64,000 nucleotides of DNA from a virus. The notes beneath the pieces were generated by a model. That model saw nothing but the letters and a program-made list of their open reading frames with translations. It did not search any database and was not told the DNA's origin. This document shows positions 198 to 52,500 of the stretch, piece after piece. The stretch is taken from IMG/VR virus record IMGVR_UViG_3300047666_001259, positions 32,001 through 96,000 of that record. One strand, 5' to 3'. Both the position numbers and the translations under genes were made by a program. Within the stretch, counting starts at the first letter, position 1. The number at the start of each line of letters is the position of its first letter.

Positions 198-383
198 ATG
201 GAGCAAGTAGGGCAAGTACAAATATTTAGTCAAACGGACGACCCCGAAACACTACAACGTGAGATGAATGATTGGTTGGTTGATTGTGATGTGACAGTTG
301 TTCGTGTCCTACAAACCCAATCTGGTAGAATGGATACCACCTTGACTATCACTTTATTTTACGTGAATAATCCCGAAGATTAA
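198..383 (+). CDS. hypothetical protein; its stop codon TAA forms the TAA|C core of the first cassette site
   Basis: 61 aa ORF, TAACTTTG promoter box at 186-193. Confidence 0.7.
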   Translation: MEQVGQVQIFSQTDDPETLQREMNDWLVDCDVTVVRVLQTQSGRMDTTLTITLFYVNNPED

Positions 384-435
384 CGGTTTGTGTATGTACC
401 GTTTGAGGTACGAAAATGGAATATAAACAGTGTTA
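381..435 (+). repeat. attC-like hairpin A1
   Basis: TAAC GGTTTGTGTAT GTACC GTTTGA GGTAC GAAAATGGA ATATAAAC AGT GTTA. Confidence 0.7.
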
Positions 436-676
436 TAAAATTAAATTGATTATGGGAATGTTTGATACAGTAATAGTTCCGTGTCCAGAATGTGGAACAA
501 AAGAAGAATTTCAGAGCAAAAGTGGTGAATGTTTTTTACAAGAAGTAGAATTAAAAGACTGTCCAAGTGATATATTGTATGACGTGAATAGACACTCGCC
601 ATACACTTGTTGTGATTGCGGTACTTTATTCGAGGTAGACACAAAATCTAAAGAAAGTACTAAAGTAGTGTTGTAG
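416..676 (+). CDS. small Zn-ribbon protein (cassette cargo); start may be Met at 452
   Basis: CPECG and CCDCG motifs. Confidence 0.7.
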   Translation: MEYKQCYKIKLIMGMFDTVIVPCPECGTKEEFQSKSGECFLQEVELKDCPSDILYDVNRHSPYTCCDCGTLFEVDTKSKESTKVVL

Positions 677-677
677 A

Positions 678-904
678 TAACGATGTACCTTTTTAAAAGC
701 AAAACGGGCGAGTGTAAAATTTGAAAATTATGGATGATAAAACGATAGCTTATTATTTACAGCACAAAGTAGAAGTAAAAGAGAATAGCTTAAAACCTAT
801 GGATAAACGTCATAAAATACCTAAGCGCATAAAGAAGGAAATAAAAGAACTAAAAGCAATGATTGAACACTTGACGGAATAATTTTTTGTTTTTATACAT
901 TGTT
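678..904 (+). repeat. attC-like hairpin A2 with an ORF inside the loop
   Basis: Left arm AACGATGTAC..TAAAAGCAAAA pairs with right arm TTTTGTTTTTATACATTGTT. Confidence 0.65.
730..882 (+). CDS. 50 aa basic hypothetical protein inside the loop of site A2 (not in the ORF track)
   Basis: ATG 730 to TAA 880-882, MDDKTIAYYLQHKVEVKENSLKPMDKRHKIPKRIKKEIKELKAMIEHLTE, AT-rich leader. Confidence 0.6.
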   Translation: MDDKTIAYYLQHKVEVKENSLKPMDKRHKIPKRIKKEIKELKAMIEHLTE

Positions 905-1306: not shown

Positions 1307-1429
1307 TAACGCTGAGTATATGAAACGTAAATTTTAAACAGACAAAATGAATAAAACAGGATATTATATATTAGGAATACTGAGCGGTTTGACCCTATAC
1401 AAACTAATTTATGTTTTATATACATTGTT
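1307..1429 (+). repeat. attC-like hairpin A4
   Basis: GTATATGAAACGTAAATT pairs with AATTTATGTTTTATATAC (two G.T pairs), then ATT GTT. Confidence 0.75.
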
Positions 1430-1586
1430 GTTGTTAGTTGATTTTACGCCTTTATACCCTTACTTAATAGATATAAACTATTATTGCGAAAAGTATACAA
1501 CTAAAAATATTGCTGAAATAGGTGCAATACTTTTGATAGTAATACCAATAGCAATATTTGTGATTAAAGAGCGCAGACTTAAGTAA
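1347..1586 (+). CDS. small two-TM membrane protein; starts in the A4 loop and reads through the right arm
   Basis: Two hydrophobic stretches; YVLYTLLL is encoded by the hairpin right arm. Confidence 0.65.
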   Translation: MNKTGYYILGILSGLTLYKLIYVLYTLLLLVDFTPLYPYLIDINYYCEKYTTKNIAEIGAILLIVIPIAIFVIKERRLK

Positions 1587-1599
1587 AATCTATTAACTA

Positions 1600-1651
1600 C
1601 AATGACTACTGTATGTGGCGTAGCTTTTCGCTATGACATATAAAGTTTGTT
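1600..1651 (+). repeat. attC-like hairpin A5
   Basis: CAAT..TGTATGTGGCGTAGC TTTTC GCTATGACATATA..GTT. Confidence 0.7.
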
Positions 1652-1688
1652 AGCATTAGTACGGATTAATAACTAAAAACTTAATAAG

Positions 1689-1880
1689 ATGACAAAAAGA
1701 GAAAGATTAAAAGAGTGGATTAAAACTCTAAACGAAGAACAAAAAGATACTGTGATACTTGAACTTACAGACTTTGCAATAGATGCCGAGTATGTTGGTT
1801 TTTATGATACTACGAAAGTACCATATTATGATTGTACTGGAGAAAATCTAGATGGAACTGAAAGCGATGATGAAGATTAG
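1689..1880 (+). CDS. hypothetical acidic protein (cassette cargo)
   Basis: Bounded by GTTAGCATTAGTAC (1649) and GTATTACTGCTAAC (1880-1893). Confidence 0.7.
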   Translation: MTKRERLKEWIKTLNEEQKDTVILELTDFAIDAEYVGFYDTTKVPYYDCTGENLDGTESDDED

Positions 1881-1931
1881 TATTACTGCTAACGTATAGT
1901 AATATGATTAGTGCGGATTAATAACAAGAAA

Positions 1932-2099
1932 ATGGCAAAGACACGAGAACAAAAAAGAATTGAAAATGCGGATAAAGTTTGTAGAGAACTTAGATACCAA
2001 ATAGTAGAATATGGACTAATAGGCGATTGGGATGCAATTAATAAGCATTTTAATTCTTGGATGAATAATGCTAAAAAATCTAAATACGAAAGACCTTAG
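1932..2099 (+). CDS. hypothetical protein (cassette cargo; likely ATG 1932)
   Basis: ORF track 1911..2099; the GTG at 1911 lies in the hairpin arm. Confidence 0.65.
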   Translation: MAKTREQKRIENADKVCRELRYQIVEYGLIGDWDAINKHFNSWMNNAKKSKYERP

Positions 2100-2136
2100 C
2101 ATTAGTACGGATTATTAACAGATAAATTATATAAAA

Positions 2137-2322
2137 ATGGAAGGAATAAAAGTAACATTAGTGCCAAATCAAGAAACAGACTACCAAGCGTTTAGATTTG
2201 ATGAATTAGGTATTACTTATTTTGAATGGTCAAAAATGAGTGAAGATGATAAAAGAATCTTGGTGTTAGAAAACATTATGGAAAATATATGCTCTCACGT
2301 TGACTCGATGGATGAGTATTAA
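2137..2322 (+). CDS. hypothetical protein (cassette cargo)
   Basis: Bounded by TTAGCATTAGTAC (2096) and GTATTAATGCTAAC (2316-2329). Confidence 0.7.
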   Translation: MEGIKVTLVPNQETDYQAFRFDELGITYFEWSKMSEDDKRILVLENIMENICSHVDSMDEY

Positions 2323-2325
2323 TGC

Positions 2326-2521
2326 TAACGGATATGGTTAAGGTTAGTTGCGGGTAGAATATTAATGAATTAAATAAACAAAAATGAAAGCAGATTTAGA
2401 ACAGTTGGAAAAAATGCAAGAAGACTTATTTAGGCAACAATGTGATTTAGATATACAGAAAGCAATGGTAAAACACTTTATAAAAAAGAAAGAAGACGAG
2501 CTATTAACTTTAACCGATGTT
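2326..2521 (+). repeat. attC-like hairpin A7 with long coding loop
   Basis: GGTTAAGGTTAGTTGC pairs with GCTATTAACTTTAACC, then GAT GTT. Confidence 0.75.
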
Positions 2522-2584
2522 GTGGACAGTTTGCCAAGTGATAGACCTAAATTAAGACCATCTTACATTGGCGATAAAGACTAA
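2384..2584 (+). CDS. coiled-coil hypothetical protein starting in the A7 loop
   Basis: ELLTLTDVV is encoded by the right arm and GTT core. Confidence 0.7.
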   Translation: MKADLEQLEKMQEDLFRQQCDLDIQKAMVKHFIKKKEDELLTLTDVVDSLPSDRPKLRPSYIGDKD

Positions 2585-2615: not shown

Positions 2616-2685
2616 CAACACCGAAATAAACTCTTGTGCGTAGCATAGAGTTTATTGAATGTTAAAGTGCGTTTTTATGCACTTT
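2616..2685 (+). repeat. terminal attC-like hairpin A8 plus short tail hairpin
   Basis: AATAAACTCT..TGC GTA GCA..AGAGTTTATT GAAT GTT AAAGTGCGTTTTTATGCACTTT; homologous to 52133-52197. Confidence 0.75.
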
Positions 2686-48168: not shown

Positions 48169-48512
48169 TAATCCTATATAAGAATAGTAATAAAGGACGT
48201 GGAACTGCCGCTAATGAAATAATGAGTGGTTATGCGTTGTATAATAACAACTGTGCTGAACCCACTTGGTTACTTACTGAGTTTAATTATTTAAAAGAAA
48301 CAACAAATATTAAATTCAAAAAATACTTTGGATATAAATTAACTGAAGAAGAAAGCGTTGTGTTTTGCTATGAAAATGATTGATATAATGAGTGAGACAC
48401 TAAGGAGTGCAAAGGGAGTGCCTAATGGCTCTTTTCGGTGTGCCGATGACGAATGTATGTTATCCCCCTCTCATTCATTATATCTTTTGTTATTGTGCGT
48501 TTTAATACACTC

Positions 48513-48714
48513 TAACGGTTTGTGTATGGGTATTTTTTGCCCGATTTAATAATAACTAAAATTTAATAAAATGACTGAGGAAATTAAGCAATTACTGATT
48601 GACTGTGCAAACTTTATCCAACCGTATGATGATGGAGGAAACGAAGCTGAAAGGTTAATGATAAGACTTGATGAAGCACTAAAGCAAGGGTAATAATTAC
48701 CTATACACGTTGTT
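48513..48714 (+). repeat. attC-like hairpin B2 with an ORF in the loop
   Basis: GTGTATGGGTATTTTTTGCCC pairs with GGGTAATAATTACCTATACAC. Confidence 0.75.
48571..48693 (+). CDS. 40 aa ORF inside the B2 loop (not in the ORF track)
   Basis: MTEEIKQLLIDCANFIQPYDDGGNEAERLMIRLDEALKQG with the shared AATAACTAAA leader. Confidence 0.55.
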   Translation: MTEEIKQLLIDCANFIQPYDDGGNEAERLMIRLDEALKQG

Positions 48715-48736
48715 GTATGTCTTTTTTAATTGCATA

Positions 48737-48790
48737 CAATATGTTGTATGTGCCGTTATGAGGCACGAGCAATGAATTTTAAACCTTGTT
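48737..48790 (+). repeat. attC-like hairpin B3, homolog of A1
   Basis: GTATGTGCCGTTATGAGGCACGA..AATG..TAAAC..TGTT. Confidence 0.65.
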
Positions 48791-48805
48791 AGGCACTTTA
48801 CGATA

Positions 48806-48997
48806 ATGGATAAGATGGAATCATTCACGTACAAAGGCTTCAAGGTAGACCCAACTTGTTATAACTATGGTTTTGAATGTATAGTTCAAGACGAAGCACC
48901 AAAGCTATTTGGTATGTCTATAAATGGCATCAAGTTAGAGATTGACGAATGGATTAAAAAAGAAAAAAGGGAAGGGGAAAACTTAGAGTACCTATAA
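48806..48997 (+). CDS. hypothetical protein (cassette cargo)
   Basis: ORF track. Confidence 0.65.
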   Translation: MDKMESFTYKGFKVDPTCYNYGFECIVQDEAPKLFGMSINGIKLEIDEWIKKEKREGENLEYL

Positions 48998-49014
48998 AAT
49001 TAAAGACAAATAAA

Positions 49015-49320
49015 ATGAACGAATCAAAAGAAATGATGGGGGAGCAATGTTTAACCGAAAAACAAACATTAAAAACCTCTTTAGAAAAATTAAACCAAAG
49101 AAACTATGAACTGAATGATATTGCGTCATTAAGTTCTCTATTAGTAGAAAAATTCTTTAACCCTAATAACGAGCCTAGAGATAATCAAGGTTCTGATAGA
49201 GAAAAAGAAAGACAGCCTGATAATATAGTTGAAGTTTTTGACGAGGTATCTAAAAAGCTTGGTAATAACATAAACACTATTGGGAGCAATTTGCAAAGAA
49301 TATTGGCAATAATGGAATAA
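49015..49320 (+). CDS. coiled-coil hypothetical protein (cassette cargo)
   Basis: ORF track. Confidence 0.65.
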   Translation: MNESKEMMGEQCLTEKQTLKTSLEKLNQRNYELNDIASLSSLLVEKFFNPNNEPRDNQGSDREKERQPDNIVEVFDEVSKKLGNNINTIGSNLQRILAIME

Positions 49321-49392
49321 CCAACTTGTGAGCGTGGGCTTTTTCTTATTAGCAGAATGTTTGATTTGAAACTGAATTTAGCCCATGACTTA

Positions 49393-49479
49393 CAACGTTT
49401 AGGCTAAGGTTAGTAGCCTTTAATACTAACCATTAAATTATAACAAGACCTATTGAGGCTATTAATTTTAGCCATTGTT
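49393..49479 (+). repeat. attC-like hairpin B5
   Basis: GGCTAAGGTTAGTAGCCT pairs with AGGCTATTAATTTTAGCC; related to the A7 arms. Confidence 0.75.
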
Positions 49480-49493
49480 AGGCATAGTTTATT

Positions 49494-49697
49494 ATGGAAG
49501 CAAGAGAATTTTACGACAAAAGAATTAACGAAGAACCGACTATTGGAAGCGTACAGTTAATGGAAGAATATGCAAAACATATTATTGAAATTAACTTTTG
49601 TGATGGCTCTCCTATTGAATTTAACAAACTATCGGTTGAGCAACTAAAAACAATTCACAAAAATATAAATAAGTGTGTCGATTGGGTTAACTCCTAA
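49494..49697 (+). CDS. hypothetical protein (cassette cargo)
   Basis: Bounded by GTTAGGCATAGTT and AATTGTGCCTAAC. Confidence 0.7.
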   Translation: MEAREFYDKRINEEPTIGSVQLMEEYAKHIIEINFCDGSPIEFNKLSVEQLKTIHKNINKCVDWVNS

Positions 49698-49704
49698 TTG
49701 TGCC

Positions 49705-49828
49705 TAACGGAATTGTATAAGGTTTCGTTACGTAGATTAAATAATAAATTAACAAATAAAAACTGAATTGTGATTAAGCAAGAAAATAATAAACAAACAG
49801 AAATTAGTAATGAACTTTATACGGTGTT
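49705..49828 (+). repeat. attC-like hairpin B6
   Basis: GTATAAGGTTTCGTTAC pairs with GTAATGAACTTTATAC, one extra base in the left arm. Confidence 0.75.
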
Positions 49829-50108
49829 ATGCCCCGTTAATTTGTTTAGGTACTTCCTTCGCAAGCAATACAAAGACGTTGAAATTAGTAACGAAGAATG
49901 CGATGAATTAAACACAGACTTTCACAAACACTTAACAAGCCTAAAGTTAAGCGAAAAGCAAAAGGAAAACATAATGCCTAAAAGTGAAATAGATGTAATA
50001 ATGAACTCTGAACACCCATTAAGAATGGATGGATTTAGCCCTGCTTATGTTTTTCATTTTGGTGAATATATAAAAAGTAGAGCAGTCGCATTGGCTAATG
50101 GGGCATAG
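49770..50108 (+). CDS. hypothetical protein starting in the B6 loop
   Basis: SNELYTVL is encoded by the right arm; ends TAATGGGGCATAG, complementary to GTTATGCCCCGTTA. Confidence 0.65.
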   Translation: MIKQENNKQTEISNELYTVLCPVNLFRYFLRKQYKDVEISNEECDELNTDFHKHLTSLKLSEKQKENIMPKSEIDVIMNSEHPLRMDGFSPAYVFHFGEYIKSRAVALANGA

Positions 50109-50113
50109 CTGTT

Positions 50114-50302
50114 GTTATCGGCAGTTTAATTGAAAAATATCAAAAAGTTCGCAATAAAAATCAGGAGCAATTTATGACTCAATTTGGAAATGAATATTCT
50201 ATATCAAACGCACTTTTATTGGAAGAAAGAGATTGTTGCGACAGATTTATAGAAGATTTGAAAAAACTGCCGATAACGGCTGATGATAAACAATCGTTTT
50301 AA
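50114..50302 (+). pseudogene. headless cassette ORF left after collapse of its upstream hairpin
   Basis: Open frame VIGSLIEKYQKVRNK...KLPITADDKQSF* beginning exactly at the GTT core. Confidence 0.45.
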
Positions 50303-50320
50303 TGTTGTTTATCATTTGTT
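50274..50320 (+). repeat. attC-like hairpin B8 (shortest intact site)
   Basis: TAAC GGCTG ATGATAAACAA TCGTTTTAATG TTGTTTATCAT TT GTT. Confidence 0.8.
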
Positions 50321-50433
50321 ATGTGTAGGTGTGGTTAATTAAGGTAGAATGTTTAATCGGAGAACTGAACAAAAATTTTAAAAGAAAAAGAAGGGTTGAT
50401 TTTAAAATTTGAATATTTATATATAAACATATT

Positions 50434-50952
50434 ATGAGTGAAGATATGAGAAAAATGATTGATAAAGCTAAGAACTTTAATCAGTTTTTAAATGAAAACG
50501 AAAATTTAATGAACCAAATATTAGATAAAATTAGTTCTAATGGTATAACATCATTAAATACTGGTGAATTAAAATATTTGAAACAATATTCTTCTGGACA
50601 AATAAATCCAGATTTAGAAAAAGCACTTCAAGTTGAAAGTGGTTTTGTTTTTGTTTCAAAAAATATACCACTGTTAAGATTTGAATATAATTTCACCGAA
50701 GAATCAGATGAAGAATATCAAAAAATGCTACACAAAGGAACCGTTTATATTGACGGATTAGAATTTGATGGAGATATTTATTGTGATGAAAATGGAAAAT
50801 ATGAAGCATTCGATTTTCACACATATCAATCCAATGATGATGGCACAACTGACCAAATAGAAGATTTAGCTTACTATGATGATGAGTTAGATGGTAAGAT
50901 AGAAAAATTCTTTAAAAATGAAGTTTCTCCTTACTTAACCTATTCATTTTAA
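50434..50952 (+). CDS. acidic protein with a phage-late-type N-terminus (cassette cargo)
   Basis: MSEDMRKMIDKAKNFNQFLNENEN; TATTTAT at 50414-50420. Confidence 0.7.
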   Translation: MSEDMRKMIDKAKNFNQFLNENENLMNQILDKISSNGITSLNTGELKYLKQYSSGQINPDLEKALQVESGFVFVSKNIPLLRFEYNFTEESDEEYQKMLHKGTVYIDGLEFDGDIYCDENGKYEAFDFHTYQSNDDGTTDQIEDLAYYDDELDGKIEKFFKNEVSPYLTYSF

Positions 50953-51001
50953 AAAGTTGGCGGGATTTTTCTTTTAAAATTTTCAACCGAAATGTTGATT
51001 A

Positions 51002-51041
51002 GAACGATAAACGGAACGATAAACGGAACGATAAACGGAAC
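51002..51041 (+). repeat. 12 bp tandem repeat GAACGATAAACG x3.3
   Basis: Direct reading of the sequence. Confidence 0.9.
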
Positions 51042-51050
51042 ACTTACACA

Positions 51051-51140
51051 TAACGTTAAGTATATGGTTTTGTAAGCCATAGCAGAAATTTACAAATTAA
51101 AAACGAATATTAATTAGGCTTATAAACTATATACATTGTT
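51051..51140 (+). repeat. attC-like hairpin B9
   Basis: GTATATGGTTTTGTAAGCC pairs with GGCTTATAAACTATATAC. Confidence 0.8.
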
Positions 51141-51178
51141 GTGTGTAATACGGGATTTAAGCCACAAACTTTATAAAA

Positions 51179-51361
51179 ATGCAAAGAAAGATAAATTGCA
51201 AACACAACAACATGGGTGCTTGGTGTACCAACAAGGATATAAAACGCTCATTGTTTGGTATAGGTGCAAGATGTTGTACTGAATTTAATGACAAAAAATG
51301 TGATTTAAAAGAAATTAGAACAAGGAAAGGCAAGCCGCCACCAAGACCAACGAAAGCGTAG
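51179..51361 (+). CDS. small Cys-rich basic protein (cassette cargo)
   Basis: Bounded by GTTGTGTGTAATAC and GTATTACACACAAT. Confidence 0.7.
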   Translation: MQRKINCKHNNMGAWCTNKDIKRSLFGIGARCCTEFNDKKCDLKEIRTRKGKPPPRPTKA

Positions 51362-51370
51362 TATTACACA

Positions 51371-51588
51371 CAATGTTATGGATATGGATTGATTTTTAAC
51401 GGATAAATAAACACAGAATTATGAATATAGACGAAGAAAATAAAGCAAAAGAATTTTACATTAAGAGTGCTATAAATGGCATTCATACACCACGAACTAA
51501 TATGGTTGAGATAAACTATTTAGATATGCTAAAGCTAATGCACTCTTACAGCCAAGAGGTAGTTAAAAATTTATCTATATCTGGTGTT
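51371..51588 (+). repeat. attC-like hairpin B10 with coding loop
   Basis: GGATATGGATTGATTTTTAAC pairs with GTTAAAAATTTATCTATATCT. Confidence 0.75.
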
Positions 51589-51759
51589 AAGAACTGGGTG
51601 GCGGTTAAAGACTCTATGCCCGAAAATTGCGACCAAGTTTTTGTAAAGTATGAAAATGGCAAATATGGAATAAATGAATGGTGGAAAAGTGATGATTGCT
51701 GGAAATACCAATTTGATAATATGATAGTAAAAGAATGGTGTAAGCCACCTTGTTCTTAA
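51421..51759 (+). CDS. DUF551-like protein starting in the B10 loop
   Basis: NWVAVKDSMPE...VFV...V.EW.KPP. Confidence 0.7.
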   Translation: MNIDEENKAKEFYIKSAINGIHTPRTNMVEINYLDMLKLMHSYSQEVVKNLSISGVKNWVAVKDSMPENCDQVFVKYENGKYGINEWWKSDDCWKYQFDNMIVKEWCKPPCS

Positions 51760-51819
51760 CGTCTCGTATATGGTGTCGGAATTTTATTTTTCTTAAAATT
51801 ATGCATTATATACTTTGTT
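51757..51819 (+). repeat. attC-like hairpin B11
   Basis: GTATATGGTGTCGGAATTT pairs with AAATTATGCATTATATAC. Confidence 0.7.
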
Positions 51820-51853
51820 ACCAATAGTACGGATTTTAATAACTAAATTTAAT

Positions 51854-52135
51854 ATGAAAACAATAACTTCAATTATAGCACTAGCTAAGGCATTTTTTAT
51901 ATTGCTTGTTAGGCGTAGTGCTTCTTTACCGCAAGTCTTAATGACTAAAAATGATTTTGAATTAGTTTTAAACCACTATCTACTAAATTATTGGGATATA
52001 AAACATGAAAATATTGATGGATTTGAACATTTAACAATTCAAAATCATTTACCATTTTATAAAAAAAGGTTTGAAGAAATGAAAAAAGTAATTGATGAAC
52101 GCAAGATTATTCGTGTGATGGTGCATTACACCTAA
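51854..52135 (+). CDS. hypothetical protein (cassette cargo; likely ATG 51854)
   Basis: Crosses an orphan right arm and GTT at 51890-51910; ends GCATTACACCTAA, complementary to GTTAGGCGTAGTGC. Confidence 0.65.
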   Translation: MKTITSIIALAKAFFILLVRRSASLPQVLMTKNDFELVLNHYLLNYWDIKHENIDGFEHLTIQNHLPFYKKRFEEMKKVIDERKIIRVMVHYT

Positions 52136-52197
52136 CACTGGAATAGATTGCGTTTCAATGCAACTCTATGGAATGTTAAAGCACGTTTTAATGTGCT
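52133..52197 (+). repeat. terminal attC-like hairpin B13 plus tail hairpin
   Basis: TAACACTGGAATAGATTGCG..TGCAACTCTATGGAATGTTAAAGCACGTTTTAATGTGCT. Confidence 0.75.
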
Positions 52198-52215
52198 AAA
52201 TTTTAAATTCATAAA

Positions 52216-52500
52216 ATGAAAGATTTGAAACCAAATTTTAAATCAGTTAGAGAACTCTGTGAAGAGTTCGGAGTTCAGGTAGAGCTTTCTTTCGGGAAGA
52301 AATTTAGAGCTATCGTGAGCAATGATGAAGAAATTCATGTGTTACAAAACGGATGGGATAAAAATCTAATTGAAGAAATCTCAGCCTTATCTGCTGAGAT
52401 GTGGAAAAGAGAAGAAAAAAGATATAAGGAGATTTCTGATAGGCTTAAAAACTTAGACCCTGAAATCTTTCCAGACAACTTATTTGAAGATAAAGAATAA
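52216..52500 (+). CDS. hypothetical protein
   Basis: ORF track. Confidence 0.6.
   Translation: MKDLKPNFKSVRELCEEFGVQVELSFGKKFRAIVSNDEEIHVLQNGWDKNLIEEISALSAEMWKREEKRYKEISDRLKNLDPEIFPDNLFEDKE

Follow-up and report, generated by a model that had tools for sequence, protein, structure and literature searches.

Coding-strand hairpin sites in two phage gene arrays and their probable place in an integron-like cassette system

Cassette arrays and site plan

We analysed a 64,000-nucleotide stretch of viral DNA (the window), bases 32001-96000 of the 105.9-kb IMG/VR record IMGVR_UViG_3300047666_001259 (CheckV completeness estimate 31%), and describe here the palindromic sites that punctuate two arrays of small open reading frames (ORFs) in it. 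Both arrays lie on the + strand amid larger phage genes, at 178-2700 (array A, within which 1307-2584 falls) and at 48169-52220 (array B), and their ORFs are set apart by imperfect palindromes, all in the same orientation as the genes. Read on the coding strand, a site consists of YAAC, 3-6 unpaired nucleotides (nt), an arm of 12-23 nt (often GTATATGR..TAGT.GCGG), a loop, the complementary arm, 0-3 nt and GTTR. The loop measures 9-150 nt; it often contains a complete mini-ORF or else the beginning of an ORF, with its leader, start codon and first 20-40 codons. Of 90 sites, 89 have Y before AAC and 84 have R after GTT; beyond that first flanking position the attC consensus (RYYYAAC / GTTRRRY) is not followed. 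Most of the apparent half sites turn out to be hairpins closed over a long range, with a right arm situated within the downstream ORF or immediately after it (2327-2521, 703-904, 48514-48714).

The arrays are best described as a chain of two alternating modules: a hairpin module, from AAC to GTT, and a body module, from GTT to the next AAC. The body module is closed by complementary ends that are specific to each cassette, R' (after GTT) and R'' (before the next AAC), which pair across the body over typically about 9-10 bp and up to 22 bp (58 bodies), whereas the R'' and R' that flank one hairpin pair over about 4 bp only. In a circularised unit these ends would lengthen the hairpin stem, as in integron cassettes, and in mRNA they would enclose each ORF. 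The initial annotation of this DNA, made from the letters alone, had noticed that ORFs 1347, 2384, 49770 and 51421 start in a loop and read through the right arm and GTT, and translation places the peptides that it quoted exactly there. The TAA/C junction that it read at 383 (the slash marks the crossover point) is likewise found, as the overlap of a stop codon with the first AAC (Table 1), and an upstream ORF (open frame of at least 40 codons) is stopped by the TAA of TAAC in 24 of 90 sites.

Site lengths, measured from AAC to GTT over 92 curated sites from the window, the P12002L and P12002S loci (L006, L007) and loci L092-L121, are quantised despite unrelated loops: 22 of the 92 measure 110-130 nt and 43 measure 170-210 nt, none falls at 150-170 nt and few at 44-90 nt, with modes near 122 and 195 nt. 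The attC sites of integrons are about 57-141 nt long. T stands just before GTT in 86 of 90 sites and G just after AAC in 64 of 90, so that the outer (R) stem could gain one further coding-strand G.T pair.

Folding strand and module junctions

The initial annotation had also proposed, from a few arms paired by hand, that non-Watson-Crick pairs are mostly G.T and never C.A on the + strand, and the wider set bears this out. We used an unbiased stem search, in which G.T and A.C were scored alike (neutral) and the long spacer was placed beside AAC, and which replaced a permissive finder with much background. In array-bearing loci this search returned 82 distinct sites in gene orientation, whose coding strand has 199 G.T and 11 A.C pairs; with the spacer geometry mirrored there were 16 hits (21 G.T against 18 A.C), and the 94 kb of the window's phage outside the arrays gave 3 hits. 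Arms differ between sites yet stay paired, and permuting the partners reduces pairing to 50%. When both strands were folded, the + strand was the more stable in 45 of 49 candidate sites as arms-only constructs (mean energy, + vs -, -8.35 vs -6.39 kcal/mol with DNA and -18.0 vs -10.9 kcal/mol with RNA parameters) and in 5 of 5 whole sites, the best of these five being 51045-51147 (site 51052-51140 with flanks; -13.1 kcal/mol on + vs -10.0 on -, z = -2.5). The full stem, with its conserved G.T pairs, can form on the coding strand only. In classical attC sites it is the bottom strand that has more G:T pairs (1.24 vs 0.39) and folds about 2.1 kcal/mol better; it is cleaved in its 5' AAC, and the extrahelical bases lie on the opposite arm (Nivina et al., 2016; PMC5027507).

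Comparison of related arrays shows where modules have been exchanged. Between phages P12002L and P12002S, read on the coding strand, homology ends after ..ACAACGT, ..GGTAACGT or ..ACAACG and picks up again at AACAACGG. One unit present only in P12002S comprises a hairpin, GTTACC.., a methyltransferase gene and ..GCTAAC, with TAACGT at both borders; P12002L retains the hairpin downstream of this methyltransferase unit, which it lacks. A three-cassette indel between the same two phages has its crossover within TGTAT of the left arm. In the Cellulophaga phages phi17:1, phi18:1 and phi12:1 (Helsingorviruses) a conserved gene ends ..GTTTAACG and is followed by three different hairpin-plus-gene units, after which homology returns exactly at the AAC of a common terminal element; the R'' ahead of this AAC is complementary to the R' of the same unit. 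A 277-nt AAC-to-AAC unit distinguishes the IMG/VR loci L100 and L110, and in L111, L115 and L117 a common block begins at AAC behind three different contexts. A programmatic count places about 21 recent boundaries at AAC, about 4 at GTT or just past R', and about 3 in or at the end of the left arm; it takes in high-identity boundaries only, with a resolution bounded by the bases common to both parents, a classification of all ends of high-scoring segment pairs having been dropped as it had mostly caught conservation of the left arm and leader. The clearest indels extend from one AAC to the next, which implies that the hairpin parts from the gene before it and moves together with the gene after it. 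In recent events the hairpin usually travels with the downstream gene, the reverse of classical attC.

GTT is a second point of exchange. About 24 loci carry the TGGTTAAGG arm; their ORFs start 44-53 nt past the arm and have unrelated N-terminal halves of 36-40 residues, and the right arm is always read as (E/K)QLTLTDV, followed by C-terminal halves that are also found with other N-halves. ORF 51421 has two classes of homologues: the N-class aligns with residues 1-56, as far as the GTT codon, and the C-class with residues from about 48 to 112, the remaining halves being unrelated in each; in the C-class the join to arms of a different sequence type lies precisely behind GTT. The N-half of this ORF has no match in IMG/VR and two loci in metagenomes. 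In DNA, metagenomic contig L125 shares with the window only the hairpin module (51381-51593), L093 and L094 likewise share the hairpin module only, and L101 and L105 share body-plus-next-arm blocks that begin at GTT. Modules are thus exchanged between phages at both triplets, and over longer times hairpin and body modules, as judged from these sequences, assort independently. It follows from the independent assortment of N- and C-halves that the read-through ORFs are mosaics. The polarity proposed in the initial annotation therefore stands in that the hairpin goes with the downstream gene and does not co-segregate with the upstream ORF, and in that the minus strand does not fold as well; GTT is also used as a junction, and neither the strict unit running from C to AA nor the idea that crossover at AA/C keeps the read-through ORFs intact survives, the homologues of ORF 51421 being split at residue 56/57.

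Distribution among phages and individual features

Stretches of the window of the size of a site match Polaribacter phage P12002S, Cellulophaga phage phi17:1, Maribacter phage Panino and a 462-kb uncultured phage, and blastn of both arrays against isolate phages returned short site-sized matches only. The site type of 2327-2521 occurs also in P12002S and about 30 IMG/VR contigs. One arm 18-mer is present in 30 IMG/VR contigs; in 596 Gb of bacterial genomes it has 3 occurrences, none in site context, which is chance level. By these sequence matches, the family is restricted to phages, with marine Flavobacteriia as hosts. Window stretches 926-1007 and 49673-49724 are concerned in the matches to LR756500.1, the 462-kb uncultured phage: an 82-nt intergenic stretch (926-1007) is 95% identical to 400993-401074 there, and a second match lies 3 kb off. 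A 34-nt stretch at 48759-48792 is identical in Panino. The matches to LR756500.1 and Panino suggest that the same arrays occur in very different phages. No close relative of the window's phage was among the loci compared, and the 452-residue protein encoded ahead of array B has relatives of no more than 70% identity, of which the best stops at a contig edge.

Two attC sites were predicted by HattCI in P12002L, and a cluster of attC sites lacking an integron integrase (CALIN) was reported there (Qi et al., 2023; PMC9892861). One of them, P12002L_attC1, is a member of the present family; it lies between two methyltransferase genes and has AAC..GTT on the coding strand (we took the Forward primers in the supplement of that paper as bottom strands, as inferred from the aadA7 control). 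GenBank-annotated coding sequences of P12002S and P12002L likewise overlap sites, for example that of a 231-residue methyltransferase that starts in a loop. The variable units of P12002L, P12002S, phi18:1 and phi12:1 often carry DNA methyltransferase genes, which fits a cassette traffic of anti-restriction functions.

The features of the two arrays are collected in Table 1. Nearly all cassette ORFs of the window are without a Pfam match, the exceptions being ORF 50434-50952 (DUF6576) and the weak zinc-ribbon of ORF 416-676; the whole window gave no matches to Rfam at gathering thresholds or in a tRNA scan.

Table 1. Sites, modules and ORFs of arrays A and B (window coordinates)
Position	Strand	Feature	Details
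198..383	+	ORF ahead of array A	Stop TAA 381-383 overlaps first AAC 382-384
382..434	+	Short site	Right arm contains start codon of ORF 416-676
416-676		ORF	Weak zinc-ribbon matches
703..904	+	202-nt site	147-nt loop encloses complete 50-residue ORF 730-882
1308..1429	+	Site	AAC, gctga, GTATATGAAACGTAAATT, 72-nt loop, AATTTATGTTTTATATAC, att, GTT; 18-bp arm with 2 G.T
1347-1586		ORF	Starts in loop of site 1308-1429, reads through right arm and GTT; YVLYTLL at 1410-1430
1595..1651	+	Short-loop site	AAC 1595-1597, arms 1608-1624 / 1630-1646, GTT 1649-1651; paired by hand; two G.T pairs, two G.A mismatches; 10-nt spacer after AAC, beyond the usual range
1649..1893	+	Body module	R' GTTAGCATTAGTA from 1649, ORF 1689-1880, R'' TATTACTGCTAAC 1881-1893; ends are inverted repeats
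1891..1931	+	Left half-site	AAC, gtata, GTAATATGATTAGTGCGG, leader; ahead of ORF 1932-2099; no clear right arm found
2327..2521	+	195-nt site	AAC, ggata, TGGTTAAGGTTAGTTGC, 148-nt loop, GCTATTAACTTTAACCG, at, GTT; 17-bp arms, 3 G.T
2384-2584		ORF	Starts in loop of site 2327-2521; arm codes LLTLTDV; ELLTLTDVV at 2498-2524 is arm and GTT
2617..2685	+	Terminal element of array A	Perfect 10-bp AAC-to-GTT hairpin (2617-2663), then AAAGTGC-GTTTTTAT-GCACTTT
48514..48714	+	201-nt site	22-bp arms; loop encloses 40-residue ORF 48571-48693
49394..49479	+	86-nt site without ORF	Followed by R' GTTAGGCA, pairing with TGCCTAAC (49701-49708) across ORF 49494-49697
49706..49828	+	123-nt site	Loop holds GTG start of ORF 49770-50108; arm and GTT code NELYTVL (49809-49829)
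51052..51140	+	Canonical 89-nt site without ORF	
51372..51588	+	Site	Left triplet AAT, not AAC; ORF 51421-51759 starts in loop; its residues 49-56, KNLSISGV, are right arm and GTT (51565-51588)
51758..51819	+	62-nt site	After stop of ORF 51421-51759 (cttAAC)
51841-51910		Weaker site	Left arm contains start of ORF 51854

An alternative start for ORF 49770-50108 is an in-frame TTG at 49845, past the site (read by eye). The 226-nt spacer just upstream of site 51052-51140 contains a perfect tandem repeat, 3.3 copies of GAACGATAAACG, at 51002-51041. An A-rich leader, TTAGTRCGGATTAWTAAC or its kin (1656-1673, 1908-1925 and 2102-2119, and in L092-L121), stands before starts, whether these are within a loop or follow R'. 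The ends of R' and of the left arm are alike (..ATTAGTRCGG), and the two stem types may for this reason share an origin. Array B ends, at 52134-52197, in an element similar to that of array A; each consists of an equal-spacer AAC..GTT hairpin followed by a short hairpin with a CGTTTT(A/T)ATG loop. The terminal counterpart in the Helsingorviruses (L088, L089 and L090; AAC-TACCATATATAAAAC-CGTTTTAATG-..) has C.A mismatches on the coding strand, and its other strand folds better with RNA parameters. The terminal element may serve as an acceptor site.

Readings of the system and related elements

On balance we lean, by a little, towards the reading that the stretch is part of an integron-like, phage-specific cassette system that works on the coding strand and joins its modules mainly at AAC and in the second place at GTT. 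Exchange would then be DNA recombination directed by site or structure, with the folded coding strand as substrate and cleavage at AA/C by analogy with IntI; the choice of strand, too, would follow from that analogy, and the cut would be made by an enzyme. Circular intermediates may be formed, in which R'' and R' would lengthen the stem. Exchange at AAC moves a hairpin with its downstream gene, and exchange at GTT makes mosaic proteins. The enzyme would not be coded by the phages examined and could possibly be a host one that acts on folded single strands.

Several observations weigh against this integron-like reading. Family searches for a tyrosine recombinase (Phage_integrase, PF00589), a serine recombinase (Resolvase), a Y1 transposase (Y1_Tnp, PF01797, above cut-off) and RecT found none in four phage records, namely the window's own, P12002L, P12002S and phi17:1, and no protein is common to the three phage groups at blastp E < 1e-4. 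In the published assay, no recombinants of P12002L_attC1 with IntI1 were verified (PMC9892861). Some boundaries fall within the left arm, and several are next to ATG, as would be expected of homology-driven exchange. Selection alone could enrich AAC, which is a true intergenic point, over GTT, which is often inside an ORF, so the 5:1 ratio of AAC to GTT is no proof of a preferred cut. The wobbles stand mostly at homologous positions of the common arm consensus and are largely inherited; they are therefore a family feature, which represents far fewer than 199 independent events. The z-scores of whole sites against shuffles are only -0.3 to -2.5, and their energies as single-stranded DNA are modest. 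Finally, the surplus of unpaired bases is next to AAC, whereas classical bottom strands have their extrahelical bases on the other arm; the spacers are 3-6 nt by AAC against 0-3 nt by GTT, and an extra far-arm T is found only in P12002L_attC1.

The most serious rival places the function of the stems in mRNA, where they would act in processing, stability or translation control, much as RNase III stalks around rRNAs or the T7 early sites, and the shuffling would be a by-product of recombination at conserved regulatory sequence. The model for this is the promoter early stem-loop (PeSL) of T4-type phages, a sigma-70 promoter with a terminator stem-loop that recombines by homology (Arbiol et al., 2010, PMC2839356; Comeau et al., 2014, PMC4122927), which shows that regulatory cassettes are able to drive ORFan shuffling and mini-circles. 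The present sites resemble PeSLs in that both are short, structured and conserved motifs, interspersed among ORFans where the genomes of virulent phages are plastic; both bound insertions, deletions and replacements between close relatives, and circular intermediates are proposed for both. A role in mRNA would agree with sites that are co-oriented with genes and whose wobbles are G.U on the transcript, with a strand gap that is largest in RNA energies, with a left arm 15-33 nt upstream of the start codon and a conserved leader, with whole ORFs enclosed by R'/R'' stems, with those boundaries that fall in the arm or at ATG, and with the lack of a recombinase in the four records. However, recent boundaries lie mostly at the triplets even where the recombining sites share longer identical arm stretches, and C-halves join different arm types exactly past GTT; the YAAC/GTTR core together with complementary ends is a specific signature of integron cassettes. 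Unlike PeSLs, the present stems span up to 200 nt and run into ORFs, and their boundaries are fixed triplets. Nor are the PeSL components apparent, as sigma-70-type promoter matches in array A are not enriched (19 vs 15.1 +/- 3.8 in shuffles, a scan outside which Bacteroidota promoters fall) and 1-2800 contains no intrinsic terminators. We regard the mRNA explanation as rather unlikely. A bolder form of the DNA reading is possible but on the whole doubtful, namely a phage-only system unrelated to IntI in which the folded coding strand is cut at both AAC and GTT and hairpin and body modules assort independently.

The other explanations fare worse. A crossover at AA/C of the + strand only, with a unit that always runs from C through hairpin, GTT and body to AA and leaves read-through ORFs intact, as the initial annotation had it, would account for the predominance of AAC-to-AAC indels and AAC boundaries in recent events, and a cut at AA/C often preserves the stop codon TAA; it is contradicted by N- and C-halves that assort independently with their junction at the GTT codon, by the loci that share only a hairpin module (L093, L094 and L125) and by the blocks of L101 and L105, and is improbable in this strict form. 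Slightly more improbable still is that the hairpin modules are themselves mobile elements, with the arms as terminal inverted repeats or as subterminal hairpins for an HUH-type single-strand transposase. The same module does occur with different upstream and downstream neighbours, and the one-strand bias and the fixed flanking triplets recall IS200/IS605 elements; yet the Y1 (HUH) transposase of those elements was not found in the four records, there is no target-site duplication, the spacers on the two sides are unlike in length and sequence, and indels between close relatives take in bodies and not hairpins alone. As for the classical polarity, in which the site goes with the ORF upstream, the strand that folds is the non-coding one and crossover is only at G/TT, the longer unpaired stretch on the AAC side of the coding strand is as in a classical top strand, and GTT junctions do exist. 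Conserved upstream genes, however, precede different hairpins in two phage genera, which together with the AAC boundaries excludes this polarity for the family, and the minus strand would have A.C mismatches and folds worse; we give it hardly any credence.

The likeness to integron attC sites and CALINs extends to the YAAC...GTTR core, the imperfect palindrome with outer (R) and inner (L) boxes, an unpaired spacer and a variable loop, to arrays of small co-oriented ORFs with cassette ends complementary across the ORF, and to one strand that is richer in G.T and folds better, with the main crossover at its 5' AAC (the strand cut being, in our case, assumed by analogy). The differences are equally clear. 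Here it is the coding strand that folds, and the site lies ahead of its gene and overlaps it, instead of being 3' of an ORF; loops reach 150 nt and are protein-coding, and R' and R'' pair over as much as 22 bp; junctions occur at both triplets, and a longer AAC-side spacer takes the place of extrahelical bases; the sites are in virulent phages and not in bacterial genomes, and no integrase was found in the four records. Sedentary chromosomal integrons contain a minority of inverted cassettes, with the ORF on the recombinogenic bottom strand of its attC, together with an ordinary attC and integrase. In the present family, unlike in those cassettes, coding-strand polarity is the rule throughout and ORFs overlap the site.

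Until now, integron-type sites in virulent phages were taken for bacterial attC sites gone astray; those described here make up one coherent family that is restricted to phages and departs from classical attC in the polarity of site to gene, in a site that is partly protein-coding and in the use of both triplets as junctions. If a dual-cut system is at work, the hairpin module would supply the leader, the start codon and an N-terminal segment of 20-40 residues, and the body would supply the rest of the protein or a whole gene; small phage proteins would then be assembled in a manner like exon shuffling, and methyltransferases and ORFans would move between unrelated virulent phages of one host class. 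More generally, if recombination occurs at the DNA level, it would account for the movement of ORFans and anti-restriction methyltransferases between unrelated Flavobacteriia phages, and these arrays would be a natural example of two-part proteins being put together at a site of recombination.

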